DNA of 26,809 nucleotides from Candidatus Hermodarchaeota archaeon (lineage in GTDB: Archaea; Asgardarchaeota; Thorarchaeia; Thorarchaeales; Thorarchaeaceae), in assembly GCA_048885865.1 (NCBI GenBank), contig JBHLLF010000034.1, positions 1 through 26,809 on the forward strand. The letters are read 5' to 3'. Positions 1 through 19,008 of the stretch are shown here, in pieces. Each line of letters begins with the position of its first letter. Within the stretch, counting starts at the first letter, position 1. A model generated the notes under the pieces. That model made no database searches. It worked only from the letters and a program-made list of their open reading frames with translations, and was not told where the DNA came from. Made by a program: the position numbers and the translations under genes.

Positions 1-3000
1 GATAAGGGTAATTCCATGAGTATCATCACCAGCTGCGCTTAGAACTGTGTAACCCTTCTTCAATGCTACATCTGAAACGAATGAGGTGTCGTTTAGATTC
101 AATGTCCCATCATAGCCCGAGTTGTCGAAGTCATATGTTGCCGTAACAACGATGCCAGATGCATTCTCGAAAATGTTAATTCTGTCATCTGTGGGGCTTG
201 TTATTTTTATTGTCAAACTATCCCAGATGATACTCTGCGTCTGACTATTCTGGTCAACCTGATTGAGTCCATGTGATCCACCATTGTAGGCTACAATGTT
301 GTAGATTACTTCTTGTACTGATGACCTGCTAATCGTGATTCGCCATACGCCTCCACCAATATGACTAGCAGGAATGGAATTGATTGTGACTGCTCCATTT
401 GTGACAGGACTTGAGTCGGATGCGTAGATGAGAGTCACATCCAGATTGACATTAGCATTGACATTGACTCTGGCATCGGCTGGCGAATATGATTGAACTA
501 CTACTCTATCAGCAATATATGTACCCTGAACGGAAGTGTCGAAAAGATCTTGAGCTCCACTACCCGATCCAGCTTCCACAGCTTTGATTGTTATCGTATC
601 CAGGCCTGCCGAATCGTCAGCAAATACGACCAAGCTGAAACTCCCTGAAACGAGCGTTGTATCACTCCAAGGTCCGACACTAGAACCATATCCTGAGCTC
701 AGCACCCAGACATCGGTTTCATTTGATAGAGGATTATCATCCCCTGAACCCAGATAAAGCAAAGTTCCGCTCACAGTGAAACTCCCATCGAGAGGCCCCC
801 GGTTCACTGTGCCAGAACCATCGGAAATTGCAAGCCCTGAAATGTCCAGGCGCGTTTCAACATCCCAGTTCACTTCATAGTAGTCTTCGTCTGAATCAAT
901 ACCATCTGTTACATATTGTCTGATATCTATGTCTGTCAAGTCAGAGTGGTTCCAATCTATCTTGATTATCCAAGTAACCACAAGTTGATTGCCAGTTCCA
1001 GAAGCTGATGACCATGAAGCAATTATTACATTGCCTGCTCCTTGTTGAATCGAGAATGAGTCGGTTGCAATAGTATATCTCAAAGTCCATTCTTCTTGAA
1101 TGCGGAGATTATCATATAGAGAGATCTCTACATATTGAAGTGCATCATAGCCATTTCCGTCACTCACATTCGATGTTATCACATAGAATCGATACCTTGC
1201 ATACAGATTGTCAGAATCATCTGCATTTTCGAGCATTGAAAGGCCATCTGTTGTGTTAACAGGAACTTCATTGGGAGCCTCAGACCAGGTGACTTTCTGG
1301 GTAGTAGTGATGAATGCGATTATTCCGAAATTGGTCTCAGAGCTGACAGAAGAAGCATTGTAATAGTAGATGGCATCAGAAGCCGTGTTTCTGAAGAGAG
1401 ACTTGTTGGAGTCAGTGAAAGCGTACCAGTGGGTCGCATTGCGAAAGATGACCACTTCGTAGGTTGTGCAAGTTGCAGAATCATAGTCATATGTAACCAT
1501 GAGTGTGAAGTTTGCCTGCTGCCCATTGAATAACGAAGCACCATCTGCTGTGATCTCAATCCTGAGTCTGTCCCAAATGCAGAATGTGGAATCAGGCATC
1601 GATATTGCGGTTATGCCGAAACCATCATCACCGTTTGCGGTGAGAACTTCATAGCCACGCTTGCCTACAGTAGCATAGGTAAATTGAGTATCGTTCAGCA
1701 CAAGAGTTCCATCGTAATTCGAACCATCATAATCATAGACTGCACTCACAATAATGCCAGTCGCATTATCGCCCACGTTCACTCGTTGGTCGGGAGGGTC
1801 AGTGATGGATATTGTAAGAGAGTCCCAAATGCAGTATGTATCGTCGTTTTGGCGAATTACTGTGATTCCGAATGAATCATCGCCTGAGGCAAAGCTCACC
1901 GTGTAGCCCTGCCTCTGCGCAAAATCGTAACTGAATAAGGAGTTGTTCAGAACAAGGGTGCCATCATAGACAGCGCCGTCAAAGTCATACCTGGCCGATA
2001 CAACAATTCCTGATGCATTAGAATTCACGTCAATTCTTTGATCCAGAGGATCAGTCATCTGAATGGTCAAGCTATCCCAAATGCAAGATGCTTCATCATT
2101 TACTTCGATCACTGTGATACCATAAGTGTCGTCCCCACTAGCTGAACTCACATTATACCAGTGTTGCTGCGCTGACGCATAGATGAAAACCGTGTCATTC
2201 AGAATCAATGTTCCATCATAGGCTGAACCGTCATACAAGTATGTCGCTGTGGGGACTATAGATGCAGTATCTCCAATGTTTAGTCTGTCATCAGCCACCG
2301 CGATTGTGATGGAAAGGGCATCCCAGATAATTGAAGGCTCAGCAATAGTCTGGATAGCACTTATGCCAAACTGGGTATCAGTGATTGAAGTCACTCCGAA
2401 TGCGTAACGGACTACGGTTGAGTACGTATGTAGCTGAGTCCAAACAAGATCCCCTGAATCCCATGCCATGGCAGTTCCATTAAGAAACACAGTTCCCATG
2501 GCTCCAGTAAACAGGACACCATCATACTGTCGAATTACGATGGCTGTTATTTCCTGTATCGAGCCTAAATCACACCTCGAATCAGAAACTGAGTAGCTCA
2601 GCACTCGCAGCTGGTCCCATATTACAGTAGCAACATCGTTAGTGCCAATCACAGTAATCCCATAGGTATCTCCGCTTGCGGAATCCACGGTGTAGGCCCT
2701 AGCACCGACAACTCCTTGCTGGAAAACCGTGTCGTTAAGATTCAGTGATCCATCAAAGGGCGTACCATCATAGTCGTAAATTGCCGACGCAGAAACAGAA
2801 GCGACATCTCCCACATTTATTCGATAATCAATAGCGGAGATGGAAACAGTTAGGGAGTCCCAAATACATGACACGACCATATTCTGTCGAATCGCAGTGA
2901 TGCCGAAAGAATCTCCAAAAGCAGAAGCAACTGTATAGCCCCGACGGCCAGCTGAAGCCTGCTGAAAGAAAGTATCATTTAATTGAAGAGTTCCATCATA

Positions 3001-6000
3001 TGTGGCGCCATCATAGTCATAGATGGCTGTTGGAACAATAGATGCAATAGTCCCAGTATCGATCCTACCATCACTCACTGTGATGGTAATCGTTAGCGAA
3101 TCCCAGATGATACCTTGGCTCTGTGAGTTCTGGTCTACTGCTGTTATGCCATGTTGATTGGTAGCGGCAGATACTGTGTCAAAAGTCACGAATTGAGCTG
3201 TGCTTCGCGTTTCAGTGAAGTCCCAAACTCCGTTGGAACCAGAATAAGTGGCACTAATGCCATTTATTGAAACAAATCCGTCGACAACAAAAGAATCATC
3301 AAAGTCGTAGATTAGAGTTACATTGCAGGAACATCCAGTATTGATGTCAATCCTTGAATCCCCAGCTGAATAAGAAATGACCACTAACTGATCCCAGATT
3401 ATCGTAGTGTTGGACGTAGTAACAACCCATTGCGTGAGGCCATAGACTAATTCAGAGGCTATAATAACATGATATCCTATTCTTTGGACAGATGCAGAGG
3501 TCTCCTGATAACGCCATCGAGTCGCCCCGGCATCCCACGCCAGAATCTTAGAGCCATTGAGTGCAGCAGAGAAACCCTTTGTAATGTCTATGTCAACAGC
3601 ATCAAACTCGTACCGCGCTTTCCACCAAGTTTCACCTATTGAATTCGTGTCGATTCGCCCATCGACAACGCCAGATTGATAGAACTCTATTCGATCCCAT
3701 ACTACATCCTGGAATTTTGAATTCAAGTTCAGGAGGCTGATGCCATATGTATCCTCATAGGCATTGGAACTGTTTACGTAATACCGCCATAAACCAACTT
3801 CGTACCTAGACGGTTGATATGCGAAGTGGTCAGTGCTCCAAATCATGGCATTGTTGTCCATGTAGAGAATGTCGTCCGCGCCTAGTGGATGATTATCAAA
3901 TTCAAGCACGGCGGTCACTATTATATCGGCCGGCGATCCATAGTCAATGCGGTCATCAGTAGTAGAGGTGGTCTGAATTAGAATTCGATCCCAGACCACA
4001 TCCGTCCAAAGGATATTTGGATTCAGAGAAGAAATGTCATGTGTCACTTCATTGGCTAAAGTCGAATTGACATAAAACCTCCAGAGGCCGACTGCTATCT
4101 TGGAAGTCTGATACTCAAAATGGTCAGTGTTCCAACTCATTAGAGTGTCATCTAGGTAGAGTGTATCGCTCGCTGTCAACATGTGGCTATCAAATTCGAG
4201 TTGTGCGGTGACAGAAATCGTAACTGTAGTGCCAAGATTCAGTCGATTGTCATTGGCTGTGGTTGTGGTGATTTGAATACGGTCCCATATTTGTGCCACA
4301 CTAATGCCTGCTAGATTAACGTATGAGATTCCGTACGTATCTTCAAGGGCATTTGATGCATTGACAAAGAATATCCATTCGCCAACTTGAGCAAACTGTG
4401 GCTTATACTGGAAATAGGACCCGACCCATGTCATCTGAGTCTCATTCATGTAAAGAATGTCATCCAGACTGAGCAAGTGGCTATCATACTCGAGTTGGGC
4501 GGTGACTCGAATATCAGCTTGAGTGTCATAGTCTATCCGCCCATCCTGCGTGGTAGTGGTGAGAACCAGAATCCTGTCCCAAATCTGATTTACTGATTTG
4601 CCATCGGTGTTCACCAACGAGATTCCATATGTCGCTTCCAGAGCAGTGGAGATGTTTACAAAATAGGTCCAAGACCCCACTTCATTTCTTATTGGTTGAT
4701 ACTGAAAGTAACTTGAAACCCAGGTCATTTCAACATCATCCATGTACAGGATGTCACCGGACTCAAGTGGATGATTATCATACTCAAGCAGAGCTGTTAC
4801 TCGAATGTCTGCCGCAGAACCGTAGTCAATTCTATTGTCCTGAGTTGAAGTCGTGATTATTCTGATGCGGTCCCAAATGACGCTGGCAGCTTGGCTGTTG
4901 AGATTCACTAGTGTTATGCCATATGTTGATTCCACTGCGCTAGTGGAATTCACAAAGTAGTTTAGAATACCAATGATCGAATATGCACCTGTTGACAATT
5001 CAAAGTGATCAGTACTCCAAGACATCAAAGTATCGTTGGTGAAGAGAGTATCTCCAGAACCTAGCAGATGACCATCATATTCAAGCTCAGCTGTTACGGT
5101 GATTGTGGTGGAGCTTCCATAATTGATACGGTCATCAGCCGCCGATGTCGTAATAATTCTGATTCTGTCCCATATGACGCTCGATTCTTTGCCATTCAGG
5201 TTCAATTCTGTAATACCATAGGCATTCATTGTGCTTGAGTTCAGATAGTATGTCCACGACCCAACATCTGAATTTGACACATCAAGCTCGAACCAAGAGT
5301 TGCCTGAATCCCATGACATGGCCTGATCCGCTAACATGACTGAATCGCCGGAGCCAAGGAAAGTACCATCATGCTCAAGCATGAGGGTGACACGGATTTG
5401 GACAATATCGTCAACATTGACTCTCTCATCATCAGCCACTGTCGTTTGCACTGAGATCCTATCCCAAATGACATCTTGGAAATTGCCATTCTGATTGACT
5501 GAAGATATTCCATAATCGGATTCCATTGCATTTGTGAGATTTACAAAGTATCTCCAAGACCCTACGCTTGCTTTTGCTCTTGGCAACTCGAACCTCAATT
5601 CTCCCCCGTCCCAAGTCATTTGGACACCGTCCATGAAGATTGTATCCAAGGAACCCAGCAAATGGCCATCATATTCCAACTGAGCCGTGACTCTCAATTC
5701 TGCAACGGAATTGATGTTGACTCTGCTGTCATCGACAGTAGTTGATGTAATCAGGATTCGGTCCCAGATTATAGATGCGTCGGATGTAGTCTGAGTCCAT
5801 GCCGTCAGCCCATAAGATGTTTCCAGAGCGGATAGAATAGCATATTGCTGGAGCTCGACTCCTGCCCTAGATTCAGAATATATCCAGTAGGTACCATTCC
5901 AGACTAGCAGTTTAGAACCTATGAGTTGCGCTGTCAGTCCCGATGTGATTGGTACGTCATCATAGTCATAGCGGCTTGCCCAATAGGTGGTTCCTGTGGA

Positions 6001-9000
6001 TCCAACATCAATCCGTCCATCATCCACCCCTGACAAATAGAACTCTATGCGATCTGAGATGAATGTGTCTGTAACTGATCCAGCATAGTATAAGTCCGCT
6101 CCTGAAGGGCCATCTCCTTCAGCCACCACCTTGAAAGTGTAAGTGTTTACCCGAACCGAGGATGACGATCCAATATCTGTTGCTGTTAGTACTCCAAGAC
6201 CATCCACATTTCCTGACCAAGAACCAGAGATGTCGTGCAAAACCCAGAAGTCCGTTTCATTTGACAAGGGGAATAGTGATGAAGCATAGAAAGTCAAAGC
6301 TCCCGTAGCCACTAGGTCAGCGGTATCTACGTTCCCACGATCATTATCTAGACTTGGTAGAGTTGAATAATCCAACCGCGTTTCTATATCCCAATTGGAT
6401 TCATACCAATCACTTGCCGCAGAAAATGTATTACTAACGAATTGCTTGGTATCAACGTCTACAATGTCAGGATGATTCCATGAGATCTTGATATACCATG
6501 TGATGTTCAGCCATATGCCAGACTGCTCATAGGTGCAAGGTCCCAAAGCAATGTACATTGACCCATTCGTGACAGAGAATGATGAATTACTTCTGACGAA
6601 TGTGACAGTCCAGTAGTTAGTTCCTCTGTCATCACTAAAGAGAAGGAGGCGTACGAGTCGGATATCTTGATAGCCGTTCTGATCCGAAGCATTTGAAGTG
6701 ATCTTATAGTAGCGTAGTCGTGCATACATGTTGTCAGTATCATCGGGATTGAGCAGGTTTGGTGGGGCTTCATTGACGGGAACTATTGGAACGTATGATG
6801 TCCAATTGACGAGCTCAGTGTTTGTGATGAACAGAGTGATGTCATACGAGGTTTCCGATATGATTGAGGACGCATTGTAAAAGTAGACCGAGTCACTATT
6901 CGTGTCATTGAATAAAGTCACATTCAGATATGTGAATGCCAACCAGTCAGTGTTGTTCCTCGCGCAGATTATCTCATATGTTGTGCATATTGTACCATCG
7001 GACTCGTAGACCACACTGAGGGTAAAGTTGACCTGCCTACCGTTTAGCACCATCTCGGCATCCGCTTGGATGTCAATCACCAGTCGATCCCAAATGACAT
7101 CCAGGATGTTCGAATCTAGGTTTACTACAGAAATGCCGAAATCAGTTTCGTAAGCATTTGTAGCGTTCACGAAGTATTTCCACAGGCCCACGGAAGATTG
7201 GGAAGTGCTATGAACGAAGGCGCTTTGAGGTGCGCTCCATACCATGGATACACCCTCCATGTAGAGAGTGTCTCCAGAACCAAGAAAGTGGTCTCCATTT
7301 CCAGCATATTCCAATTTCGCAGTGACTTGTAATTCAACTGTGTTGCCGACATTGACTCGAGAATCATCAGCTGTTATCGAAAGGATGAGTATCCTGTCCC
7401 AAATGACTTCAACGCTTAATGAATTCAAATCGACTTCGCTAATCCCATAAGTAGTTTCAAGGCTGGAATTAGCAAAGAAGGTCCATTTTCCAACCTCGGT
7501 GAACGCGACGTCGAGGATGAAATGACTATTCCCTCCATCCCACGTCATCGCCGAGTCGTTGACGAATACAGAGTCCCCACTACCAAGAAATGTGTGGTCG
7601 AATTCGAGCCACAATGTTACTTGGATTTGGGCAATCGAACCTACATCAAGGTGACTTATGTCAACATTTGTAGTTTGGACAGTGATCTTGTCCCAGATGA
7701 TGCTAGTATTAGCTGCTATCTGAATGAATCGAGTTAGACCGTAGAGCGACTCGGAAGCACTCGAAACTCCATATCCCATCGATTGGACTGTAGAGAATGA
7801 TTCAGAGTAGTCCCACATACTTGTGATACCATTCCAAGAAAGCGCCTTGCTACCATTCAGTGACGCGCTGAGTCCAGAGGTGATTTCAAACTGATCGTAG
7901 GCGTATCTTGCTCTCCACCATGTTGTACCAACCGCATCAACATTGATTCTGCCATCCTCAACCCCAGATGAATAGAACTCAATCTCATCCCATATGATCG
8001 ATACATTGGAGGCTGTTTGAACCCACGCTGTGAGACCATAAGTCGTTTCAGAAGCGGAAGCAATCCCATACCCCACAAGTTGGACAGAGCTTTTTGCTTC
8101 TGAAAAGTCCCAACGGAAGTCAGAAGAATTCCAAGCCAGTGCTTTTGAGCCATTCATTGATGCAGTTAAAATGGCTCCCGATATCTCAATTCTATCATAT
8201 TCATACCTTGCGTTCCAGTAAACCAACCCAATATGATCCACATCGACTCTGCCATCAACTGCCCCGCTCTGATAGAACTCTATCCGATCCCAAATCTGGC
8301 TAATACTATTGCCATCTAGGAATAGAGCAGAAATCCCATAGGTTGCTTCATTCGCATTAGAGGAGTTGACATAGAAATCCCAACGTCCAACCATAAAGAA
8401 TTGAGGCTGAAGTCGGAAGTACGAACCAACCCAAGTCATCACAGTATCATTCATGTATAAGGTGTCAGCAACACCTAGAGGATGGCCATCGAACTGCAAT
8501 TCCGCGGTGACTCGAATGTCCGCCAACGACCCGAAGTCAATTCTGCCTACTTGTGTCGTAGTTGTGACAATCACAATTTGATCCCATATTTGATCGACTT
8601 CCGCACCAGCGAGATTGACCACGGTTATCTGAAATGTAGCTTCCAAAGCTCCAGTGGAATTCACATAGAACTTCCACTCGCCCACTTGAGAGAACTGGGG
8701 TTGCAGTCGGAAATATGGGCCAACCCATGAGAGCCCTGTATTGTTCATGAAAAGAGTATCACCCAAACCGAGTGGATGGCCATCATACTCTAGCTCAGCG
8801 GTGACTCTCAAATCTGCAAATGTATTGATATCAATTCGTGAATCTTGAGAGGCAGTAGCCGTTATCAGAATGCGGTCCCAAATCACATTCGCTGAAAGTG
8901 GGTTGGATTGCACGAGCGTTATTCCAGAAGCTGTTTCTAGAGCACCTGATGCATTCACAAAGTACCTGAGAGATCCAACTATAGAATAGGAGCCAGTTTC

Positions 9001-12000
9001 GAGATAGAAATGATCTGTATCCCATGTCATCACAGTATCATTCATTCGTAATGTGTCTCCACTGCCCAAGAAGGTGCCATCATACTCAAGTTGAGCTGTG
9101 ACATTTACTGTAGTGCTTGTACCATAGTCGATTCTACCGTCAGAAGCCACTGTGGTGATAATAAGAATACGGTCCCAGATTTGGTCTATCTGTTTCCCGT
9201 CAATATTGAGCACAGTAATATCGTAAGTATTCTCCACGGCTCCAGTTGCATTGACATAGAATCTCCACAGCCCCACCTGCGAGAACTGAGGCTGCAGCCT
9301 GAAATAAGGACCAACCCAAGTCATGGCTGTGCTGTTCATGTAGAGTGTATCTCCCGCTCCAAGAAGATGGCCGTCGAATTCCAACTCTGCTGTCACTCTA
9401 ATGTCCGCAGCTGTCCCATAGTCAATTCTTCCATTCTGCGTGGTGGTTGTGATAATTCGTATGCGATCCCAAATGATTGTTGCATTGCTTGCGGTTTGCA
9501 CCCAGCCAGCTAGTCCATGTGTGGCATCGTAAGCCGAGGCGATTGTATATCCAGTGGCCTGGACTGAACTCATAGTTTCTTGAAATGTCCAGTGGGAGCC
9601 ATTCCACAAGAGTATCTTGGTGCCATTTAATGCCGCGCTCAGCCCGCCCGTTATTGAGAGAGAGTCGTACTGGTATCTGGCACTCCACCAAGTGACACCG
9701 CTCGAATCGACATCTATTCTGGAATCATCGACTCCTGACTGATAGAATTCGATTCTATCAGCGACAAATATGTCAGCAATGCTTGAGAAAAGAAGATCAG
9801 TGCCCCCAAATCCTGCACCCTTTTGGACAACCTTGACTGTGTAAGTGTCTTGGCCAACTTCATCATCTGCATAGCAGGTAACGTTGAAGAACCCTGAAAC
9901 CAGGGATGAATCAAGCCAAGGCCCTACACTGGTTCCATACTCAGACCCGGAAACCCACACGTCCACTTCTGATGATGGGGGAGTGATAGCTGAACCATGA
10001 TATGCAACAGTGCCAGTGGTGAAGAACTGAGTATCTAGGTCCCCTCTATTTATCGTGCCTATATTATCGTCAGTGGCAATGCCCACAATGTCCAGCCGAG
10101 TTTCTATGTCCCAATCGACTTCATACCAGTCCGTGTCATTCTCTGATTTACTGTCAATGACGACACACTCAACATCGGTTCCTGTGACGTCCGGATGAAT
10201 CCATTCAATCGAAACTTGAAAGGTAATATCAATATCATTCCCCGCCCTCAAGGCATTTGATGAAACAGTGTCAAGAGCGATGTAATTTGCCGGGTCCGAG
10301 AACTCAGCAAAGCTATCAGTGTCCTCATTATACTCGATTGTCCAGTAGAGTGTGAGTCTATCGTCCGAGTATAGAGAGAGCCGCATGCTTTGGATGTCAC
10401 TATACCCGTCCTGGTCAGAAATATTTGCAGCTATCAGATAATCCCTGGCTTTAGCATACATGTGGTTAGAATCATCGATGTTGCCTACCGAGGGCTGTTC
10501 ATCGTTCGATGGAATATTGTTCCAAGTGTGAAGAAGAGTTGCATCAATGGACCATTGTGACGACACCGCGTCGCCTACTTCCAGCCCGCCCCTGAACCTG
10601 ATGGTGAATGTTGCAGATGTTAGCCAAGTTTCCACGCTTATGTTGTTCCATGAGTCTGCCTGCAAGTCAGCGAATAGACTGACCCAGGCAAGCCCGTCCC
10701 AGACTTCGACTGCTATATCTTCTGAATCGGTATTCCCTGCATAGATGCAGAGAAACTCGTTATTATTGTCAAATTCAGCTGCGGTCCATTGGACCTCCAA
10801 GTCTAGTTCATAGTTGTAGGTCTGATCTGTCCAGGTATGAAGTGTAATGAGATCTATCTCCCAAAGCCCTTGCTCTGCATCACTTGTGTTATCTGCACCT
10901 CGGAGTCTAATCGTGTAGCTGACTGAATTAAGGCCTGTGGCAGTCAGATTGGTCCACCCGGTTGCGGTAATCGTTCCCAGGCTGAGCCAGCCGACTCCAT
11001 TCCAGTAGCTGACATTTAGACCCTCAGTCCCAGCAATCGATCCAACATTGATACAGACTTCCTCATTGACTTCATCATTGTCTGCTCCACTCCAAGCGTA
11101 CTCGAAATCAGCCTCGTAGTTGACAACCTTTGGGGAACTAACGCCAATCCGCAGATGATCAGCGTAGGCATAGTCTGCACCACCAGTCTTGTAGAACACA
11201 AGTCTAATACGAAGTGAATTGACCTGCTGTTGAGAAAGTGTACCTACAATTGTCAGGTTGTCGTATTGCTTGGCCGTATGCTGCGCGACTCTACCCAGCA
11301 AAGTGCCGGCGCCTCCGGTAGTATCATAATAGACATCAAATCCATCATCAGCCGCACCATCAAGGTTCCAGCAATACAACGATACGTTTACTGTGAGGGC
11401 TCCCGACAAAGACGTGTTAGGAAATCCCCACCAGCCTCCCTGAGATCCTGGGGCCTTTGTATAGATGTAGTTCACAGGCTCATCTTGTGAACTCAGGTAG
11501 GGAGAAGTACCTTCTATTGTGAATCCGGCATAAGTCGCATCGTATGCGTCTGTGTCAAGCCAAACAGACTGATACGGATCACCGATATCTACTTCCTGAA
11601 TAGTCATGAACTGGGTGTCAACAGCGGTTCCTTGTGCATTTGCAGGATTCGTCTCGACCCCCACATCTGGTGAAGAGTCAACATCACTCGCATAGCTATC
11701 ATAATCATCCTCAGCGTCCGTGGTAATGGGTGCTGTATTCTCTTCAGTAAGAGTATCATATGTAGCATCAGGTCCAGATTGTTGGTTGGCAAAATTCGAG
11801 TGACTTCCTAGGTATCCGGCGCCATCGACATCTGACAGATTATTAGCTGCAAATTGTTCAAGCGATGATGCAAGAGTGTATTCTGTCTGAGTCACTATCA
11901 AACTTGGCTCACACGTTGGAGAGTATGAAGGATTAGTACTAGTGCCGAGCAGCATAGCCACTATACATCCTGTGAGGACAATGACTAAGGGTCCTCTCCT

Positions 12001-12006
12001 CTTCAT
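1..12006 (-). CDS. Giant secreted/cell-surface repeat protein (>=4002 aa, 3' end outside the window), predicted tandem beta-sandwich domains
   Basis: ATG at 12006-12004, GGAGGT 4 nt upstream and an in-frame upstream TGA at 12036-12034. N-terminus MKRRGPLVIVLTGCIVAMLLGTSTNPSYS (basic + hydrophobic signal peptide). Hand translation of long stretches stays in one frame to base 1 (...IIWDSLTIKITSPTDDRINIFENASGIVVTATYDFDNSGYDGTLNLNDTSF...HGITLI). The ORF track lists no minus ORF in this frame, as expected if there is no stop in the window. WD boundary motif every 243-309 nt. Confidence 0.95.
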   Translation of the reverse strand, partial: MKRRGPLVIVLTGCIVAMLLGTSTNPSYSPTCEPSLIVTQTEYTLASSLEQFAANNLSDVDGAGYLGSHSNFANQQSGPDATYDTLTEENTAPITTDAEDDYDSYASDVDSSPDVGVETNPANAQGTAVDTQFMTIQEVDIGDPYQSVWLDTDAYDATYAGFTIEGTSPYLSSQDEPVNYIYTKAPGSQGGWWGFPNTSLSGALTVNVSLYCWNLDGAADDGFDVYYDTTGGAGTLLGRVAQHTAKQYDNLTIVGTLSQQQVNSLRIRLVFYKTGGADYAYADHLRIGVSSPKVVNYEADFEYAWSGADNDEVNEEVCINVGSIAGTEGLNVSYWNGVGWLSLGTITATGWTNLTATGLNSVSYTIRLRGADNTSDAEQGLWEIDLITLHTWTDQTYNYELDLEVQWTAAEFDNNNEFLCIYAGNTDSEDIAVEVWDGLAWVSLFADLQADSWNNISVETWLTSATFTIRFRGGLEVGDAVSSQWSIDATLLHTWNNIPSNDEQPSVGNIDDSNHMYAKARDYLIAANISDQDGYSDIQSMRLSLYSDDRLTLYWTIEYNEDTDSFAEFSDPANYIALDTVSSNALRAGNDIDITFQVSIEWIHPDVTGTDVECVVIDSKSENDTDWYEVDWDIETRLDIVGIATDDNIGTINRGDLDTQFFTTGTVAYHGSAITPPSSEVDVWVSGSEYGTSVGPWLDSSLVSGFFNVTCYADDEVGQDTYTVKVVQKGAGFGGTDLLFSSIADIFVADRIEFYQSGVDDSRIDVDSSGVTWWSARYQYDSLSITGGLSAALNGTKILLWNGSHWTFQETMSSVQATGYTIASAYDATHGLAGWVQTASNATIIWDRIRIITTTTQNGRIDYGTAADIRVTAELEFDGHLLGAGDTLYMNSTAMTWVGPYFRLQPQFSQVGLWRFYVNATGAVENTYDITVLNIDGKQIDQIWDRILIITTVASDGRIDYGTSTTVNVTAQLEYDGTFLGSGDTLRMNDTVMTWDTDHFYLETGSYSIVGSLRYFVNASGALETASGITLVQSNPLSANVIWDRILITATASQDSRIDINTFADLRVTAELEYDGHPLGLGDTLFMNNTGLSWVGPYFRLQPQFSQVGEWKFYVNSTGALEATFQITVVNLAGAEVDQIWDQIVIVTTTTQVGRIDFGSLADIRVTAELQFDGHPLGVADTLYMNDTVMTWVGSYFRLQPQFFMVGRWDFYVNSSNANEATYGISALFLDGNSISQIWDRIEFYQSGAVDGRVDVDHIGLVYWNARYEYDRIEISGAILTASMNGSKALAWNSSDFRWDFSEAKSSVQLVGYGIASASETTYGLTAWVQTASNVSIIWDEIEFYSSGVEDGRINVDAVGTTWWRARYAYDQFEITSGLSASLNGSKALSWNGITSMWDYSESFSTVQSMGYGVSSASESLYGLTRFIQIAANTSIIWDKITVQTTNVDISHLDVGSIAQIQVTLWLEFDHTFLGSGDSVFVNDSAMTWDGGNSHFILDVAFTEVGKWTFFANSSLETTYGISEVDLNSLSVEVIWDRILILSITADDSRVNVGNTVELQVTAKLEYAGNGDHFLGSGDTLYMEGVSMVWSAPQSAFVHSTSQSSVGLWKYFVNATNAYETDFGISVVNLDSNILDVIWDRLVIDIQADAEMVLNGRQVNFTLSVVYESDGTICTTYEIICARNNTDWLAFTYLNVTLFNDTNSDSVYFYNASSIISETSYDITLFITNTELVNWTSYVPIVPVNEAPPNLLNPDDTDNMYARLRYYKITSNASDQNGYQDIRLVRLLLFSDDRGTNYWTVTFVRSNSSFSVTNGSMYIALGPCTYEQSGIWLNITWYIKISWNHPDIVDVDTKQFVSNTFSAASDWYESNWDIETRLDYSTLPSLDNDRGNVDTADLVATGALTFYASSLFPLSNETDFWVLHDISGSWSGNVDGLGVLTATDIGSSSSVRVNTYTFKVVAEGDGPSGADLYYAGSVTDTFISDRIEFYLSGVDDGRIDVGSTGTTYWASRYDYDDVPITSGLTAQLIGSKLLVWNGTYWIYSESRAGVELQQYAILSALETSYGLTAWTQTTSDASIIWDRILITSTTVDDSRVNINSVAELRVTAQLEYDGHLLGSLDTIFMDGVQMTWDGGELRFELPRAKASVGSWRYFVNLTNAMESDYGISSVNQNGNFQDVIWDRISVQTTVADDERVNVDDIVQIRVTLMLEHDGTFLGSGDSVMLADQAMSWDSGNSWFELDVSNSDVGSWTYYLNSSTMNAYGITELNLNGKESSVIWDRIRIITTSAADDRINYGSSTTITVTAELEYDGHLLGSGDTLFTNDTLMSWSTDHFELSTGAYSIIGILNYFVNSTSAVESTYGITLVNLNSQAASVIWDRIRIITTSTQDNRIDYGSAADIRVTALLEYDNHPLESGDILYMDDVEMTWVSSYFQYQPIRNEVGSWTYFVNISTALEATYGISLVNTDGKSVNQIWDRILVLTTTTQDGRIDYDTQADIRVTAQLEYDSHLLSLDDILYMNETQMTWVGSYFQYKPQFAQVGEWIFFVNASNALEDTYGISYVNLAGISVAQIWDRIQITTTTANDNRLNLGTTVTISVTAQLEFDSHMLTASDTLYLDDTLMSWNTDHFEYQTSKIAVGLWRFYVNSTLANEVTHDISSLNPNILWTDVVWDRILIQTTSTTDDRIDYGSPADIIVTAVLEFDNHPLGADDILYMDNNAMIWSTDHFAYQPSRYEVGLWRYYVNSSNAYEDTYGISLLNLNSKFQDVVWDRIEFYQSGVVDGRIDTNSIGETWWKARYEFDAVDIDITKGFSAALNGSKILAWDAGATRWRYQETSASVQRIGYHVIIASELVYGLTQWVVTTSNTTIIWDQLVVISYSAGDSRIDINTGCSCNVTLIYDFDDSFVVDGFVSINGISATYSGSNGVWDFTETRSTAQFVTFDTVSAATNQHGITAVDQNSQSQGIIWDSLTITITVSDGRIDTGTIASIVPTAIYDYDGATYDGTLQLNDTFFQQASAGRRGYTVASAFGDSFGITAIRQNMVVSCIWDSLTVSISAIDYRINVGDVASVSASAIYDYDGTPFDGSLNLNDTVFQQGVVGARAYTVDSASGDTYGITVIGTNDVATVIWDQLRVLSYSVSDSRCDLGSIQEITAIVIRQYDGVLFTGAMGTVFLNGTAMAWDSGDLVWTQLHTYSTVVRYAFGVTSITDTQFGISAIQTIAEPSIIWDALSITIAVADDRLNIGDTASIVPTATYLYDGSAYDGTLILNDTVFIYASAQQHWYNVSSASGDDTYGITVIEVNDEASCIWDSLTIQMTDPLDQRIDVNSNASGIVVSARYDFDGAVYDGTLVLNNSLFSYDFAQRQGYTVSFASGDDSFGITVIRQNDDTYCIWDSLTISITDPPDQRVNVGDNATGIIVSAVYDYDGSNYDGTLVLNDTQFTYATVGKRGYEVLTANGDDGFGITAISMPDSTFCIWDRLRIEITADGASLFNGQQANFTLMVTYDYDSATCTTYEVVIFRNATHWYAFTDSNKSLFRNTASDAIYYYNASSVSSETNFGIIAFITTTQKVTWSEAPNEVPVNTTDGLSMLENADDSDNLYARYRFYVITSNVSDGNGYDALQYVEISLYDNLRIQEEWTLRYTIATDSFSIQQGAGNVIIASWSSASGTGNQLVVTWIIKIDWNHSDLTDIDIRQYVTDGIDSDEDYYEVNWDVETRLDISGLAISDGSGTVNRGPLDGSFTVSGTLLYLGSGDDNPLSNETDVWVLSSGYGSSVGPWSDTTLVSGSFSLVVFADDSAGLDTITIKAVEAGSGSGAQDLFDTSVQGTYIADRVVVQSYSPADARVNVNANVNLDVTLIYASDSSPVTNGAVTINSIPASHIGGGVWRITISRSSVQEVIYNIVAYNGGSHGLNQVDQNSQTQSIIWDSLTIKITSPTDDRINIFENASGIVVTATYDFDNSGYDGTLNLNDTSFVSDVALKKGYTVLSAAGDDTHGITLI
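517..1269 (-). repeat. Node module copy 3 of the giant protein
   Basis: VPVN...DDSDNLYARYRFYVITSNVSDGNGYDAL...WNHSD...DYYEVNWDVETRLD...NRGPLD...PLSNETDVWV...GPW. Confidence 0.85.
6058..6783 (-). repeat. Node module copy 2 of the giant protein
   Basis: VPVNE...DDTDNMYARLRYYKITSNASDQNGYQDI...WNHPD...DWYESNWDIETRLD...DRGNVD...PLSNETDFWV. Confidence 0.85.
9763..10518 (-). repeat. Node module copy 1 (~250 aa) of the giant protein
   Basis: DDSNHMYAKARDYLIAANISDQDGYSDI...WIHPD...DWYEVDWDIETRLD...NRGDLD...SEVDVWV...GPW; homologous to copies 2 and 3. Confidence 0.85.
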
Positions 12007-12010
12007 ACTT

Positions 12011-12016
12011 ACCTCC
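12011..12016 (-). promoter_or_regulatory. Shine-Dalgarno (GGAGGT) of the giant gene
   Basis: Plus strand acctcc, 4 nt upstream of ATG 12006. Confidence 0.8.
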
Positions 12017-12193
12017 TCTATCAGCCGCTTCAATCATGCTGTCGGGACCATCGAAGCCTTGATTGAAACTCACTTCTATCGCGAATTGCAGGGCTCACTG
12101 GACTGGGTTGGATCGACCTGCATCAATTATGGGATTTCCTACCCACAGTACGGTCTTCATGTATGCATATTTGTCTTACTTCATTGGTTTCCA

Positions 12194-12258: not shown

Positions 12259-13611
12259 CTATTGATCCTCGTCATCTTCTCCGAATCGCTTCGGCCTGCC
12301 AAGACGTCTGGAGTCGTCTACTCTAAGCCTATCAGGATCAGGTGGTGCACCATATCGTTCCTCTTTAGGCTCTCTAATCTCTTCAACGACCTCCCTATCG
12401 AGATCTTCTTCGCGAATCTCTTTGCCTTCTTTTCGCTCCTCTTTCACCCGCTCAGCGACGCGCTCAGCTCTCTCGAACATGACATAGTAGAGCGTGGTGA
12501 AGATTGCTACTAGCGGGAAGGCCAGCAGCTTCGCGATATCTCGGAAGAGAAACGTTTCGTAGACAGCAGGACCTGACCAGTCAAACCATCCTGCGAGGAT
12601 TGTGGCTCCAGAGTTAGAAACTGCGATAATGCTGTCAACGAAGAAGAACCCGCTGGCAAGGAAGAATGTGAATAGAGGACCGAAATCGCGTGTCCTCATG
12701 CGGGTCTCTTCCACACCCTCTGTGACAGTACGTCCTATCCCGCTCATAGCATAGAGCAAAAAGAACAGTGACATCGCGATATCAACGACGCTCATCGTGG
12801 GAGCTCCAGTTCTTCGCATTACGTTGACAAAGAAGTAGCCCGAATATATTCCAATGAAGATAGTCATCAGTGCGACATTCAAAGCTGCACCCTTACCGGC
12901 ATACCTAAAGAATGCCAAGAGGGATACCAAAGCAAAGAGTCCAAGGAGTCCTGCTGCCACCCAAATCAGAATTCCGTGAATCTGTAGATTGGATACAGCT
13001 TGTGGAAAGATTGCGGTTATTGCATCACCCAGACCAAACATGTTCTCCGGTATCAAGAAGAGAACAGCTAGAACTATAGCTCCTATAATTCCAAGTCCGA
13101 TGATCAACAGAAGGAAACTTCCAATGCCAACTCCAATTCCGCCCTTCTTTGGCTCTGCGATAGTGGCGAGGCGCAAACTGGTTCTTGATGACAAGTAGGC
13201 TTGGAAAGCGATCCAACCAACCCAACAGAACATGGCGAAGAACAGTAGGGCAGTCTCTCCAAAGAAAATTGACAGGAAAACTGATATCGCAAATGACACA
13301 GCTAGCCAGGCAACGCCCTTTAGTTCTGTCACCCGCCCTCGCCCTCTTCGTGTGATCCATAGCCGATCTGCACGCACCCCAATAAGTAGAGTCCCAAAGG
13401 CGAAATAGATGGTGCCTGTGGCACCAATGTATAGGAAGAAGTTCGCCAATATGAGCTCGATGCCTGTACCGGGATAGAGCGTCATGAGCCATGTCACGAG
13501 GTAGCCCAGGAAGGTTGTGAACACAAAGATGATCAAATAAGCAACGTATCTTCGAGTCTTAAAGAAGACCTTCAGACCTTCAACAATTCCAGATAGAATC
13601 GGGATTCCCAT
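12259..13611 (-). CDS. Polytopic membrane protein of unknown function (~11-12 TM, charged C-terminal tail)
   Basis: 450-aa ORF of hydrophobic segments alternating with basic loops (RRGRGR, EPKKGG), ending in a ~70-aa E/R/K/D-rich tail. GGAGG at 13622-13618. Confidence 0.9.
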   Translation of the reverse strand: MGIPILSGIVEGLKVFFKTRRYVAYLIIFVFTTFLGYLVTWLMTLYPGTGIELILANFFLYIGATGTIYFAFGTLLIGVRADRLWITRRGRGRVTELKGVAWLAVSFAISVFLSIFFGETALLFFAMFCWVGWIAFQAYLSSRTSLRLATIAEPKKGGIGVGIGSFLLLIIGLGIIGAIVLAVLFLIPENMFGLGDAITAIFPQAVSNLQIHGILIWVAAGLLGLFALVSLLAFFRYAGKGAALNVALMTIFIGIYSGYFFVNVMRRTGAPTMSVVDIAMSLFFLLYAMSGIGRTVTEGVEETRMRTRDFGPLFTFFLASGFFFVDSIIAVSNSGATILAGWFDWSGPAVYETFLFRDIAKLLAFPLVAIFTTLYYVMFERAERVAERVKEERKEGKEIREEDLDREVVEEIREPKEERYGAPPDPDRLRVDDSRRLGRPKRFGEDDEDQ

Positions 13612-14166: not shown

Positions 14167-15570
14167 ATGGAAACACGACAGATTGCCGCCGTAATTCTCA
14201 TCGTCGTGGTTATTGCCGGCGTGGGCATAGGAATCTATTACTTCATGCCACAAGCCCCAGAACCGCCATACGGTGAGTTGGTAATCGGACAGGTAGTCAC
14301 ACCTGGCGCTCCAGCTGGAGTTGCGAGCGACCACATAATAAAAGTGGGAGTCCTCGGACCTTTGACCGAGATCCAAGGTATTGGCCATTGGAGAGGAGCC
14401 TATATGGCTTGTGACGAGCTGAACACTGCAGGCGGAGTAACAATAGACGGGGAAGTGTACTATTTTGGCATCATTGCCGAAGACACGTTTGAGGCTGAAA
14501 CCAGTCTTGACCCATCCAAAGGAGTGACTGCAGCGCAGAGAATCCTTACTACCGATGGCGCCCAATTCGTTCTTGGAGGATTCAGAACTGAGGCGGTAGA
14601 TGCCTATCTGCCAACAATAATGGACGCTGAGAAGCTATTCTTGAGCTGCGGACCTGCAACAGACATATTCACTACCTATGTGAATGATTCGTATGATACG
14701 TACAAGTATTACTTCAAGGTCACCCCAATAAACTCCACAGCTCTAGGAGGCGAGATAATTGGATTCCTAGCCGCGCTCAAGCCAATCATGCAGGGTGCAC
14801 TAGGAAAGAACATATCCCAAGTCGCAATCATTCGCGAGGATCTCGCATGGACAATACCACTTAGTAATGCCATTAACTACTACTTGCCCTTTTTCGGGTA
14901 CAATAAGACAATAGAGATAGCGTACCCGATTGCACAATCAGCATCATCATCATCATTCGCCGGATATTGGCAGCAGATTGAAGCCACTGGAGCACAGATC
15001 ACAATTCCAATAATTTCTGCACAAGGTGGGATTACAATGGTAACCCAGTATAAGGCGCTTGAACCGGGGTGCCTTATCGCAGGCATTGATGTCCAGGCAC
15101 AGCTGGCTAATTACTGGAATGAAACCGGTGGTGCCTGTGAGCACGAAGTCATCATCCAGACAATGCATCGCACCAATAAGACAACGAGGTCAATAGATAT
15201 GTGGGATGGTTTTATTGACCACTACGGGGACGAACCACTCTATACAGCCGTTGGCGCCTATGATGCGATGTATCTGTTGCACAAAGGAATCAATGATGCA
15301 CAGTCTCTGGTCTCAAACGATATTATACCATATCTTGAGGCCATAACAGTAGACAATCCGTTCGAAGGAGTAGGGGCTAACTTTGCTTACACTTCCACCC
15401 ACGACGTCTATGAAGGCTACATCGGTAACACACTCTATAGCGTGGGACTGTTCTGCCAATGGCAGGCAGGAGGAGTTAAGGAAGTCGTCACAACCGGAGG
15501 CGCTGTGTATCCGAATTGGCTCGCGACAGCAGATATCACATTTCCATCTTGGGGCATCAATGACGAATAG
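14167..15570 (+). CDS. ABC transporter substrate-binding protein, LivJ/K-like (type 1 periplasmic binding fold), N-terminal TM anchor
   Basis: N-terminal TM helix + Pro-rich linker, no lipobox Cys. IKVGVLGPLT, FVLGGFRTE, VAIIREDLAW and GAYDAMYLL motifs. Upstream of livHMGF-like genes. Confidence 0.9.
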   Translation: METRQIAAVILIVVVIAGVGIGIYYFMPQAPEPPYGELVIGQVVTPGAPAGVASDHIIKVGVLGPLTEIQGIGHWRGAYMACDELNTAGGVTIDGEVYYFGIIAEDTFEAETSLDPSKGVTAAQRILTTDGAQFVLGGFRTEAVDAYLPTIMDAEKLFLSCGPATDIFTTYVNDSYDTYKYYFKVTPINSTALGGEIIGFLAALKPIMQGALGKNISQVAIIREDLAWTIPLSNAINYYLPFFGYNKTIEIAYPIAQSASSSSFAGYWQQIEATGAQITIPIISAQGGITMVTQYKALEPGCLIAGIDVQAQLANYWNETGGACEHEVIIQTMHRTNKTTRSIDMWDGFIDHYGDEPLYTAVGAYDAMYLLHKGINDAQSLVSNDIIPYLEAITVDNPFEGVGANFAYTSTHDVYEGYIGNTLYSVGLFCQWQAGGVKEVVTTGGAVYPNWLATADITFPSWGINDE

Positions 15571-15607
15571 GTGACCTAATGGATTCAAGATGGATACATG
15601 GAATATT

Positions 15608-15651
15608 GAAGGAGTTTGAGTATTATTTGCTCAAATTCCCTTCTTCTTTTT
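15608..15651 (+). terminator. Intra-operonic hairpin + U tract after the SBP gene
   Basis: GAAGGAGUUUGAGUA-UUAUU-UGCUCAAAUUCC(C)UUC: ~15-bp stem with two G-U pairs and one bulge, followed by UUCUUUUU. Confidence 0.75.
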
Positions 15652-15718
15652 CCGACCAATTTTTCAATACGTTTGTAAATGAAATTCCCGGACAATCAAA
15701 CCTCAGAGGCGGAATATC

Positions 15719-16570
15719 TTGATAGAGGAGATACTAATCTTTGGCACGGTGCAAGGTGCTCTTCTAGCACTATTTGCACTGGGTTTTTCTCTAGTCTACG
15801 GTGTAGGTGGAGTGCTAAACCTGTCCCATGGAGCTTTCTTTGTAATCGCGGTCTACGTGTTCTACTGGACAATTCCTTTGTACGGAATAGCGATAAGTGC
15901 GGTTTTCGCGCTGATTGCAGTAGTTGCTGTCGGGGCAGCGACATATCTAGCACTCATCAAGCCCTTGCAGGAAAGTCACATTGGTGTTGTCTTGGTTACA
16001 TTCGCGCTGGCATTCTTCCTTGAGCAATTTGTGAAGGTCGTTGGGGACTCTTTATTTCACTATATACCGCCTTACATCTCGGGCCCAGTCGAATTCTTGG
16101 GTGTCAGATTCCAAGCCCAATTGGTGATTCTGGTGGTGGGATCTCTAATCCTTGTGACAGGGGTAGCTCTGTTCATTAACAAATCAAGAATTGGCAAGTC
16201 AATACGTGCCGTATCGCAGGATGCAGAGGCGGCAAAGCTAATGGGCATAAACACTGACTTGGTGCTAATGACAAGCGTTATGATATCGGCTTTGCTCGTG
16301 GGTTTTGCGGCTATTCTTTACGGCCCGGGCACCTCGATCGCACCTCACTTGGGATGGAGCTATCTGCTATCTGCTTTCGCAGTAACAATCTTTGGTGGAA
16401 TGGGTAGCATACCAGGAAGCATTTTGGGCGCCTTCATAATGGGATATGCAGGAACATTTACTAATTTCTACATTAGTGCTGCCCTCTCAGAGGTAATTCC
16501 CATTGTAGTGATTCTAGTAATGTTGTTGGTCAGACCTCAAGGGCTGTTAGGAAAGAAGGAGCTGCAATAG
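15719..16570 (+). CDS. livH: Branched-chain amino acid-type ABC permease (LivH-like)
   Basis: ALGFSLVYGVGGVLNLSHG, SRIGKSIRAVSQDAEAAKLMGIN, FGGMGSIPG and VRPQGLLG motifs. TTG start. Confidence 0.92.
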   Translation: MIEEILIFGTVQGALLALFALGFSLVYGVGGVLNLSHGAFFVIAVYVFYWTIPLYGIAISAVFALIAVVAVGAATYLALIKPLQESHIGVVLVTFALAFFLEQFVKVVGDSLFHYIPPYISGPVEFLGVRFQAQLVILVVGSLILVTGVALFINKSRIGKSIRAVSQDAEAAKLMGINTDLVLMTSVMISALLVGFAAILYGPGTSIAPHLGWSYLLSAFAVTIFGGMGSIPGSILGAFIMGYAGTFTNFYISAALSEVIPIVVILVMLLVRPQGLLGKKELQ

Positions 16571-16574
16571 ATCA

Positions 16575-17558
16575 ATGATGAATTTCGAGATAGATCTCAA
16601 TTTATTGCAAAGGCGCTTTAGAGCTTGGGCCCTGTCTTATCGTGGAACCATAGCGCTTGCTTGCTTCTTCGGATTGCTTCTCATTCCACCAATCACTGGT
16701 AATCAGTACTATGCACAAGTTCTTATCATAGCCATGATCTATGCGATCTTTGCGGCAAGCTGGGACCTCCTTGCAGGTTTTGCAGGGCAGATCAGTTTTG
16801 GACACTCTGCATTCTTTGGAATAGGAGGCTATGCCACGGCTGCCCTTGTCAAGTTCTTTGGAGTCCATTGGGTGTTAGCAGTAATCACTGGCGCCCTTGT
16901 CGCTGTGCTATCCAGTCTATTGATTGGAATACCATGTCTGAGATTGAAGGGACCTTACTTGGCTCTTGGAACACTAGCGTTTAGTTTAATCTTGCTCAAC
17001 GTGTTAATGATGGGGGACTTTCTGGGTGGCACCGAGGGCATCTCAGGATTGCCTGTGGTTGAGAACATATTCATAGCCTTCTATCTCGTACTAGCAATCA
17101 TGATAGTCAGTCTGGTTACAATGCGGACGATTGCTGATTCGAATCTCGGTACAATTCTGAAAGCAATTCGAGACGATGAAACATGCGCTGATGCATCTGG
17201 GATAAACACTACCGTCTACAAGCTCATTGCATTCATGATCAGTGGGTTTTTCGCTGGGATTGCGGGTGCATTGTACTTGCTGAGCACAACGACCGTCAAT
17301 CCAGCTTACTTCCAACCACTCTACTCGTTCTATGCCATCATAATGGCTTCGATAGGGGGTATTGCCACCATCTATGGATCGACAATCGGTTCATTCCTCT
17401 ATGTCGTTCTTAACGAGTATCTCAGACCACTGGCAGCAGTAGCACTATTGTCCTTTGCCACCATTCTAATCTTTATCGTGCGCTTTGCGGAGGAAGGCGT
17501 CATGAATCCATTCTTTGAGAAGTCTCAAGAACTTTGGGACAAAATACGGGGAAGGTAA
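16575..17558 (+). CDS. livM: Branched-chain amino acid-type ABC permease (LivM-like)
   Basis: SWDLLAGFAGQISFGHSAFFGIGGY, LRLKGPYLALGTL, GGTEGI and LKAIRDDE...GIN motifs. Confidence 0.92.
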   Translation: MMNFEIDLNLLQRRFRAWALSYRGTIALACFFGLLLIPPITGNQYYAQVLIIAMIYAIFAASWDLLAGFAGQISFGHSAFFGIGGYATAALVKFFGVHWVLAVITGALVAVLSSLLIGIPCLRLKGPYLALGTLAFSLILLNVLMMGDFLGGTEGISGLPVVENIFIAFYLVLAIMIVSLVTMRTIADSNLGTILKAIRDDETCADASGINTTVYKLIAFMISGFFAGIAGALYLLSTTTVNPAYFQPLYSFYAIIMASIGGIATIYGSTIGSFLYVVLNEYLRPLAAVALLSFATILIFIVRFAEEGVMNPFFEKSQELWDKIRGR

Positions 17559-17559
17559 G

Positions 17560-18300: not shown

Positions 18301-18997
18301 ATTGAGAAAGGTCTACCACTACTACGGTAAAGCCAAGGCTTTGGAAGAAGTCAATCTGACCGTGGAGGAAGGCTCTCTCGACGCCGTTATTGGCCCAAAC
18401 GGTGCAGGGAAGTCCACGCTCCTCCGGGCCATATCTGGATTGGAAGAGATTGACAGAGGAAGGATAAGCTTCAGAGGAGAAAGGATAGACGAACTAGATG
18501 CCTATCAAATAGCTCGGAGGGGAATCGCGCAGTGTCCAGAGCGCAGGCGGCTCTTCTATGATATGTCAGTGATGGAGAACCTTGAACTCGGAGCATATTC
18601 ATTGAGGGACAAAAGCAAGTATTCAAAACTCCTCGATTTTGTCTTCGATATCTTCCCCAGATTGCAGGAGCGAACAGAGCAACGTGCTGGAACCCTTAGT
18701 GGGGGTGAGCAACAGATGCTCGCAATCGGGCGTGCACTTATGTCCGATCCAATACTGCTCTTGTTGGATGAACCGTCCCTGGGATTAGCGCCTAAAATCA
18801 AGACGAGAATCTTCGAAGCAATTCTCCAAATCAAGGAGGAGGGTACAACAACTCTTCTGGTTGAACAAGATGCAGTTCTAGCAATGGAGATTGCAGATTA
18901 TATCTATGTGCTTGAGGAAGGCAAGATCGAGATGAGCGGGACAAAAGAGCAATTGCAGAGAGAGCCGCGCATCAAGAAAGTCTATTTAGGAATATAG
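18284..18997 (+). CDS. livF: ABC ATP-binding protein (LivF-like)
   Basis: GPNGAGKST, PERRRLF, FPRLQER, LSGGEQQMLAIGRALM, LLLLDEPSLGLAP, LLVEQ and VYLG motifs. GTG start overlapping livG. Confidence 0.94.
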   Translation: MKHLLELRKVYHYYGKAKALEEVNLTVEEGSLDAVIGPNGAGKSTLLRAISGLEEIDRGRISFRGERIDELDAYQIARRGIAQCPERRRLFYDMSVMENLELGAYSLRDKSKYSKLLDFVFDIFPRLQERTEQRAGTLSGGEQQMLAIGRALMSDPILLLLDEPSLGLAPKIKTRIFEAILQIKEEGTTTLLVEQDAVLAMEIADYIYVLEEGKIEMSGTKEQLQREPRIKKVYLGI

Positions 18998-19008
18998 GTG
19001 ATGATAGA

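Follow-up and report, generated by a model that had tools for sequence, protein, structure and literature searches.

A giant Thorarchaeota protein with an immunoglobulin-like stalk and a lectin-like tip: a candidate archaeal fibrillar adhesin

Introduction

Giant proteins of Asgard archaea are on record: one list has been published (PMC8813620 Extended Data Fig. 7), and three Thorarchaeota proteins of more than 5,000 amino acids (aa) were present in UniProt (PMC11573180). In a cultured Asgard archaeon, an adhesin-like protein of 5,416 aa is described as containing 54 fibronectin-like domains and is predicted to extend ~250 nm (10.1101/2025.07.22.663070). Electron cryotomography (cryo-ET) of a Lokiarchaeon revealed complex surface proteins, a single membrane and no surface layer (S-layer); Asgard archaea, which have no ordered S-layer, bear many unidentified protruding surface structures that are thought to mediate the cell-cell contacts that matter for syntrophy and for models of how eukaryotes arose (PMC9834061). 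Fibrillar adhesins have been defined, in work that makes no mention of archaea, as very long proteins that combine an adhesive region with a repetitive, rod-like part and an anchor at the surface (PMC9210967, Monzon and Bateman). Here we describe a gene on the minus strand of a 26,809-bp contig (JBHLLF010000034.1, hereafter C34 or the window, analyzed in full) of a Thorarchaeota archaeon; the gene runs off the left end of the contig, and the 4,002 codons that remain visible encode most of what is probably a type-I membrane glycoprotein working like a fibrillar adhesin.

How does this protein compare with its closest described counterpart? With LOKIASV2_19760 of Nerearchaeum marumarumayae it shares an Asgard host, an N-terminal signal, tens of tandem beta-sandwich domains, a membrane-spanning segment, a size of ~5,000 aa and a predicted reach of ~250 nm; as far as a comparison by description goes, the two differ in their building blocks, 54 fibronectin-like domains in LOKIASV2_19760 and, here, lineage-restricted "IWD" units that have no Pfam match above cut-off. 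Three node modules and a tip with a jelly-roll like that of carbohydrate-binding modules (CBMs) are features of the present protein when it is set against that description. An earlier reading of the same DNA (the original prediction) had treated the protein as novel, a view that must be given up for the kind as a whole, of which the 5,416-aa protein of the cultured archaeon is an example (10.1101/2025.07.22.663070). Of interest are a lineage-restricted, essentially unmodelled immunoglobulin (Ig)-like domain family and the clear domain grammar in which it is used.

A giant gene cut by the contig end

The window is a complete contig (G000:C34) of a 3.58-Mb source assembly, labeled G000, with 117 contigs and an estimated completeness of ~87%; since the DNA examined is the entire contig, the gene has been cut by the assembly. 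When open reading frames (ORFs) are listed with open ends allowed, a single minus-strand frame covers 1..12033: its 4,011 codons are free of stops, and it runs off the contig unclosed. Given the local base composition (stop-codon frequency ~0.054), so many codons would go without a stop by chance with a probability of ~1e-97, and just one other ORF of at least 100 aa, encoding 140 aa, lies within 1-12033. The first ATG is at 12006-12004, and a Shine-Dalgarno-like GGAGG (12012..12016, minus strand), read from the sequence, lies 5 nt upstream of it. The frame, together with a syntenic orthologue, defines 1..12006 (minus strand), close to half of C34, as the first 4,002 codons of a coding sequence whose full length is probably ~5,170 codons. 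The visible protein (441 kDa, pI 4.05) is rich in Ser, Thr, Asp, Val, Ile and Gly. These data bear out most of what had been proposed for the locus: an uninterrupted minus-strand frame with a ribosome-binding motif, an N-terminal signal segment and no stop, and a product rich in Thr, Ser, Asp, Val and Ile; the full machine translation of the 4,011 codons has no in-frame stop, which would have counted against the proposal. The gene is not "hidden," however. It is indeed absent from the default ORF listing, an artefact of the default omission of frames that run off an end, but the public NCBI protein collection already includes this very product of 4,002 aa, as a partial "hypothetical protein," and sibling genomes annotate it under the same name. 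There is a lesson for annotation here: ORFs at contig ends need to be listed.

Is a repetitive gene that stops at a contig end to be trusted? A repeat array that had collapsed during assembly, or a decaying pseudogene, is a fair suspicion, because the gene is interrupted by the end of the contig and repeats pose problems for assembly. However, a syntenic orthologue in G015, a genome of the same genus, is present at G015:C16:2336-17848; its 5,170-aa product aligns with the visible protein without gaps over 4,003 residues at 91% identity, and dN/dS (nonsynonymous over synonymous substitution rates; Nei-Gojobori) over the aligned codons is 0.13 (0.08-0.24 by region). The upstream membrane-protein gene adjoins the giant gene in both genomes, and a Liv-type ABC transporter, a HEAT-repeat protein and an acyl-CoA ligase lie farther out. 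Independent NCBI assemblies give the same gapless gene, 99.6-100% identical to the G015 form and in every case called a "hypothetical protein" of Candidatus Thorarchaeota, and the repeats are too divergent (16-67% identical to each other) to suit a collapsed array. Because the orthologue aligns gaplessly over 4,003 codons and dN/dS is 0.13, the gene is, by these comparisons, real and under purifying selection, and we give next to no credence to an artefact or a pseudogene. The named homologues come from metagenome-assembled genomes (MAGs) of Candidatus Thorarchaeota, Sifarchaeia or Promethearchaeota, in keeping with the earlier guess that the DNA belongs to an Asgard-type archaeon.

One sibling MAG carries the orthologue as two adjacent proteins on a single 110,691-bp contig: P0181 and P0186 (MFW9861964.1 and MFW9861965.1; 728 and 4,359 aa) cover residues 2-729 and 813-5171 of the G015 form. 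A frameshift or a stop at this point could explain the split, as could an error of assembly.

Modular architecture of the visible protein

The domain layout was derived from hidden Markov models (HMMs) built on the protein's own repeats; residues are numbered as in P0001, in which the initiator Met is residue 10. The chain opens with an N-terminal signal segment (11935..12006, minus strand, as are all coordinates in this section; residues 10-33): a basic n-region (KRR) is followed by a hydrophobic stretch of ~19 aa, and the segment is identical in the G015 orthologue. This is the only strong Kyte-Doolittle peak in the visible protein (mean 2.0 over residues 14-32; all others at most 1.33). Next come an acidic, probably disordered stretch and a less defined beta region that opens the head (11572..11928); the predicted local distance difference test (pLDDT) score of the structural model is 30-48 for the first ~40 residues and 67-84 for the next ~70, staying below 50 over the acidic residues ~36-75 and climbing over 76-155. 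The head domain proper, a predicted CBM-type jelly-roll (11134..11571, to residue 300), is assigned from an AlphaFold2 (AF2) model with pLDDT ~90 and from fold matches. Two homologous "b" units of ~100 aa each, predicted to be jelly-roll-like, connect the head to node 1 (10519..11127, residues 303-505): the pair can be aligned, HMM matches to it are found across the family, and the model is beta-rich with pLDDT 81-95.

The rest of the visible protein is a stalk in which runs of IWD units alternate with nodes. Node module 1 (9769..10521, residues 505-755) comprises ~250 aa and, with the node 2 model as a proxy and an alignment of the three nodes as support, two predicted Ig-like domains. Run 1 (6805..9768, residues 756-1743) contains 10 units of 96-103 aa, the last of which belongs to a distinct capping subtype, as judged from the HMM table, the alignment and subtype clustering. 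Node module 2 (6064..6804, residues 1744-1990), modeled with a pLDDT of 92.5, consists of a V-set-like Ig domain and a second Ig-like domain. Run 2 (1291..6063, residues 1991-3581), defined by the same three lines of evidence as run 1, has 17 units, among them short ones of 81-84 aa, and again ends with a capping unit; node module 3 (520..1290, residues 3582-3838), identified by the node alignment and HMM, follows. Of run 3 (1..519, residues 3839-4011), only the first two units are visible in the HMM table, the second truncated by the contig end; in the G015 orthologue this run has 12 recognised units, with one unmatched stretch of ~100 aa among them.

The 29 visible units (81-103 aa) start with an I-W-D-(R/S)-(I/L) motif. 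Their alignment shows one invariant Asp and another that at least 90% of the units share, and clustering separates the capping unit that precedes nodes 2 and 3 and the short 81-84-aa subtype from the rest. Pairwise identity ranges from 16 to 67%, by which measure the units are old duplications and not the near-identical repeats of "periscope" proteins. The protein contains 74 N-glycosylation sequons as compared to 44 +/- 6 in shuffled sequences, and their placement within the unit is fixed: alignment column 53 carries one in 20 of 29 units, column 86 in 13 of 29. The sequons, the acidity and the richness in Ser, Thr and Asp fit an extracellular archaeal glycoprotein, and we infer that the protein is glycosylated.

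Predicted folds of the stalk and the head

Two segments were modeled with AF2. The first, a 442-aa construct that spans a capping unit, node 2 and the next unit (alignment of 26 rows from the source and related genomes), gave an all-beta model with a mean pLDDT of 92.5 and a predicted template modeling score (pTM) of 0.68. A Foldseek search of the PDB with this model returned multi-domain Ig, FN3 and macroglobulin arrays, including the Bap BSP domain, complement C3/C4, S-layer proteins (EA1 8opr and the archaeal 7ptp), RTX-adhesin tetra-tandem repeats and titin. VIA-align resolves four domains: the capping unit is Ig-like (Z 8.8, root-mean-square deviation (rmsd) 2.8, 91 residues aligned); node domain 1 (model residues 104-241) resembles antibody variable domains (Z ~9.2, rmsd 3.0, 115 aligned); and both node domain 2 (model residues 242-350) and the unit that follows it resemble intimin Ig domains (Z 9.2). 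As a whole, the model aligns with four-domain arrays such as ICAM-5 D1-D4, FdeC and an RTX adhesin extender. The original prediction had envisaged an extended beta-sandwich rod of more than 100 nm in its visible part, and the models favor this picture: an all-beta fold at pLDDT 92.5, Ig-like domains and matches to adhesin stalks (ICAM-5, intimin, FdeC, the RTX extender) all point to a rod. The RII tetra-tandemer of MpAFP is ~190 Å long for four Ig-like repeats (PMC4083281); at the resulting ~4.75 nm per repeat, the 35 visible stalk domains (29 units and 6 node domains) would span ~165 nm if extended, and the full-length protein, we infer, would exceed 200 nm.

The second construct, 470 aa long, covers the head and the "b" units (27 rows); its mean pLDDT is 83, with the first ~40 residues below 50. 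Foldseek matched it to reelin repeats, CBM51, CBM32, Cry protoxin domains and BcsB. For the head alone (model residues 122-264), CBM36 tops the VIA-align matches (Z 10.6, rmsd 3.0, 117/124 aligned), with CBM86, CBM29, CBM6, CBM32 and CBM35 among the further ones, then Eph ligand-binding domains and MAM. An ESM Atlas search with the head gave scores of at most 0.88, which serve as a lead only.

The missing C-terminus and the membrane anchor

If the protein is held on the cell, where is its anchor? In the G015 orthologue, a hydrophobic helix at residue 5040 (Kyte-Doolittle 2.19) is followed by a tail of ~110 aa; apart from this helix and the N-terminal segment, no part is strongly hydrophobic. 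Of the homologues gathered, 37 appear complete (1,098-6,612 aa, with 3-58 recognised units), and all 37 have both an N-terminal hydrophobic segment and a transmembrane (TM) helix after the last unit, with tails of 2 to ~500 aa. These helices make it very improbable that we are dealing with a shed or secreted matrix protein, similar to halomucin, that is not kept on the cell: such a product would also be large, acidic and rich in Ser and Thr, and the C-terminus of the source allele is out of sight, but a TM helix after the last unit is present in the 91% orthologue and in each of the 37 complete members. The orthologue tail does not have a PGF-CTERM-like end, and Pfam detects RTX or type I secretion system (T1SS) domains neither in the visible protein nor in the last 1,170 aa of the orthologue.

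A fibrillar adhesin is the preferred reading, and the protein would work as follows. The Sec-type N-terminal signal would carry the chain across the single membrane, and the C-terminal TM helix would hold the full-length protein there, with a short helical tail inside the cell. The stalk, a long and thin array of ~45-50 predicted Ig-like domains (39 IWD units plus three two-domain nodes), would reach ~150-250 nm if extended and place three jelly-roll, lectin/CBM-like domains at its far tip, which would probably recognise a glycan, or some other ligand, at the surface of particles or partner cells. Two points weigh against this reading: (i) the C-terminal ~1,170 residues, anchor included, are found neither on C34 nor anywhere in the source assembly, so that the anchor is read across from orthologues; and (ii) the fold matches are generic (Z 9-10.6, when the best background matches are typically 7-8) and speak to the predicted fold, not to function.

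No public record extends the source allele past residue 4,011, and two candidates for missing or additional parts were rejected. A crude rule flagged residue 3173 as an internal TM segment; this is a beta-strand region with a Kyte-Doolittle value of 1.24. A C-terminal fragment of 724 aa at the right end of another source contig, C90, has the orientation expected of the missing gene end, but shares just 33% identity with the repeats of the orthologue. Orthologues of the fragment itself, 85-87% identical, occur in genomes that separately hold an orthologue of the giant gene, and the fragment therefore represents a second family member. This fragment (G000:C90 5827-7998, minus strand) comprises the last 724 codons of its gene, running in from the contig end, and encodes two units, one TM helix and a very acidic (Glu/Asp-rich) tail of ~450 aa, predicted to be cytoplasmic; its orthologues are on G002:C83, G013:C362 and G010:C38, in three genomes of the source's genus.

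A different contig may mark the other side of the gap. The right end of C44 (G000:C44 20930-21130) matches an ORF at the very start of the G015 orthologue contig (97% at the protein level). The likely scaffold order, which rests on ~200 bp, is C44, a ~5.6-kb gap and C34; the comparison suggests that the gap would contain, besides two small genes, the 3.5 kb by which the giant gene falls short on C34.

A repeat family nearly confined to one lineage

No named domain family had been recognised for the repeat, and database searches agree. Pfam and NCBIfam offer nothing usable for the whole protein, the head or node 1, and the unit profile has no relative among PDB sequences, the only match being at chance level (E 0.76). 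One Pfam model calls for comment, DUF7738 (PF24880): it has no match at E<=1 in a whole-protein search of the visible protein, and the best score in the source genome, at window positions 1669-1851, is 15.8 bits against a gathering cut-off of 24.6. Relatives of the giant protein do exceed this cut-off; in the paralogue P0010, the matches total 153 bits, and the strongest of them falls, out of register, on a short unit of 83 aa. DUF7738 is thus probably a partial model of the same domain as the unit, and we found no paper on it; new family models for the unit, the node and the "b" unit are warranted.

Searched against 1.84 billion representatives, the unit profile has matches in 876 clusters (50% identity) at E <= 1e-3, 283 of them at E <= 1e-30. 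In a sample of 301 Asgard genomes the profile matches 44 of the 76 from the source's own family and two stray genomes of two other families, and none of the remaining genomes sampled; by this count the unit family is nearly confined to one family. Size differs among its members: the largest complete one seen, P0029, has 6,612 aa and 58 recognised units in runs of 32, 11 and 15 (G065:C55 has an open frame of 6,620 aa). Smaller members bear other heads of lectin type, Laminin_G_3 in P0157 and DUF2341 in P0079, on a stalk of the same family. Orthologues of the giant protein at 67-91% identity, however, keep the unit counts of 10/17/12; length is therefore conserved within an orthologue group and varies between paralogues.

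Such constancy suggests that length itself matters, which would also be expected of a structural part of the envelope: a glycocalyx-like spacer or canopy that sets a distance around the membrane of an Asgard cell devoid of an S-layer, with no adhesive role. The S-layer proteins EA1 8opr and archaeal 7ptp among the multi-Ig matches of the stalk model, and the unordered, complex densities without an ordered S-layer on Asgard cells (PMC9834061), are compatible with this idea. Yet a lectin-like tip and heads that differ between members fit target recognition better, and the family, with matches in just 44 of the 76 genomes sampled from its own lineage, is not a universal envelope component; we regard a spacer as an unlikely, if reasonable, alternative to an adhesin.

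Giant genes also travel. Aloposons, a type of Asgard mobile element, carry giant genes (Otus and Ephialtes, of Heimdallarchaeum) as a tandem pair, with a downstream tRNA integration site and an upstream MinD/ParA-type gene (PMC8813620), and the giant gene could be cargo of an element of this type. C34 has neither a tRNA gene nor a MinD/ParA-type gene, and the giant gene stands without a giant tandem partner both on C34 and in G015, although the downstream side of the source allele lies off the contig. Moreover, the flanks (the Liv-type ABC transporter, HEAT protein and acyl-CoA ligase) are conserved in G015, and the unit profile is null in the other Asgard families sampled, bar the two stray genomes. 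For want of the tRNA, the MinD/ParA gene and the tandem partner, we rejected this scenario, which is barely credible and, like a secreted matrix protein and an assembly artefact, poorly supported.

Comparison with fibrillar adhesins and other giants

Setting the protein, for which adhesion is the preferred role, beside the definition of fibrillar adhesins gives the following picture. Its length is large (at least 4,002 aa visible, 5,170 aa in the orthologue); its stalk, 29 tandem units and 3 nodes with an Ig-like model, is predicted to be rod-like; its distal region is an N-terminal CBM-like jelly-roll by predicted fold only (Z 10.6), with no sequence family; and its surface anchor lies outside the contig and the assembly, a C-terminal TM helix being present in the 91% orthologue and the 37 relatives. 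Judged from the models, the architecture is that of a fibrillar adhesin, and binding is a prediction.

Bacterial fibrillar and RTX adhesins (MpIBP/MpAFP, LapA-type extender, intimin, FdeC, Bap) are likewise large and present a distal ligand-binding region, predicted in our case, on a rod of tandem ~100-aa Ig-like repeats. Here, however, the host is a single-membrane archaeon, a C-terminal TM helix (seen in the orthologue) takes the place of T1SS retention, a sortase motif or a beta-barrel, and the repeats are divergent (16-67% identity) rather than near-identical. A comparison of the unit profile with PDB sequences shows no sequence homology to these adhesins. Nor is the protein an RTX adhesin, a type with C-terminal RTX nonapeptide repeats, a T1SS signal and an N-terminal retention module: in place of the RTX and T1SS domains, which Pfam does not find, it has an N-terminal signal and, in the orthologue, a C-terminal TM helix. 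Archaeal S-layer glycoproteins are abundant and form lattices, often with a PGF-CTERM or a C-terminal TM anchor; the matches of our stalk model to S-layer proteins (EA1, 7ptp) are of the generic multi-Ig kind. Archaeal huge proteins with an N-terminal Laminin_G_3 domain (PMC11573180) are similar in being giant and in having a lectin-type domain near the N-terminus, and the small family member P0157 does have Laminin_G_3; the head of the giant protein has no Laminin_G_3 match, and its predicted jelly-roll is closer in fold to the CBM6/35/36 type.

What could such a protein offer its host? The family provides a concrete candidate for a Thorarchaeota surface structure with a domain map: a CBM-like tip, an Ig-like stalk barely covered by Pfam and a TM anchor. 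The unit alignment and the models define constructs for expression, glycan arrays, structures and antibody labeling. More speculatively, and rather improbably as things stand, fixed-length, lectin-tipped rods of ~200 nm may account for some of the "complex surface proteins" that cryo-ET shows on Asgard cells and may, in Thorarchaeota, tether syntrophic partners or particles at a set distance, the tail perhaps coupling them to internal machinery. If true, the closest relatives of eukaryotes would offer a cell-cell contact system that is specific to one lineage and directly testable.

Neighboring genes and a still longer frame

Directly upstream of the giant gene, on the same strand, 12259-13611 (minus strand) encodes a 450-aa multi-pass membrane protein with no Pfam match. 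Its gene stays beside the giant gene in close orthologues (85-95% identity), it has a 29% paralogue on C41, and the two genes may be co-transcribed. On the opposite strand, 14167-22047 (plus strand) holds a Liv-type ABC transporter operon (binding protein, two permeases and two ATPases) and, within the same interval on its 3' side, genes for a 446-aa all-HEAT-repeat protein and an AMP-binding acyl-CoA ligase; the order is the same in G015. Two more probable surface proteins are encoded on the minus strand: a 765-aa protein with a Big_13 Ig-like domain (22292-24589), and one of at least 550 aa with SdrD_B/CarboxypepD_reg/SpaA-type domains (25156-26808), which runs off the right contig end.

A longer frame was observed elsewhere: at G043:C81 1016-31429 (plus strand), at least 10,138 codons, starting with an N-terminal signal, are still open at the contig end. 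The predicted product combines head-type and "b"-type jelly-roll units and lacks both IWD units and nodes; should the frame prove real, its product would rank with the largest proteins of archaea.

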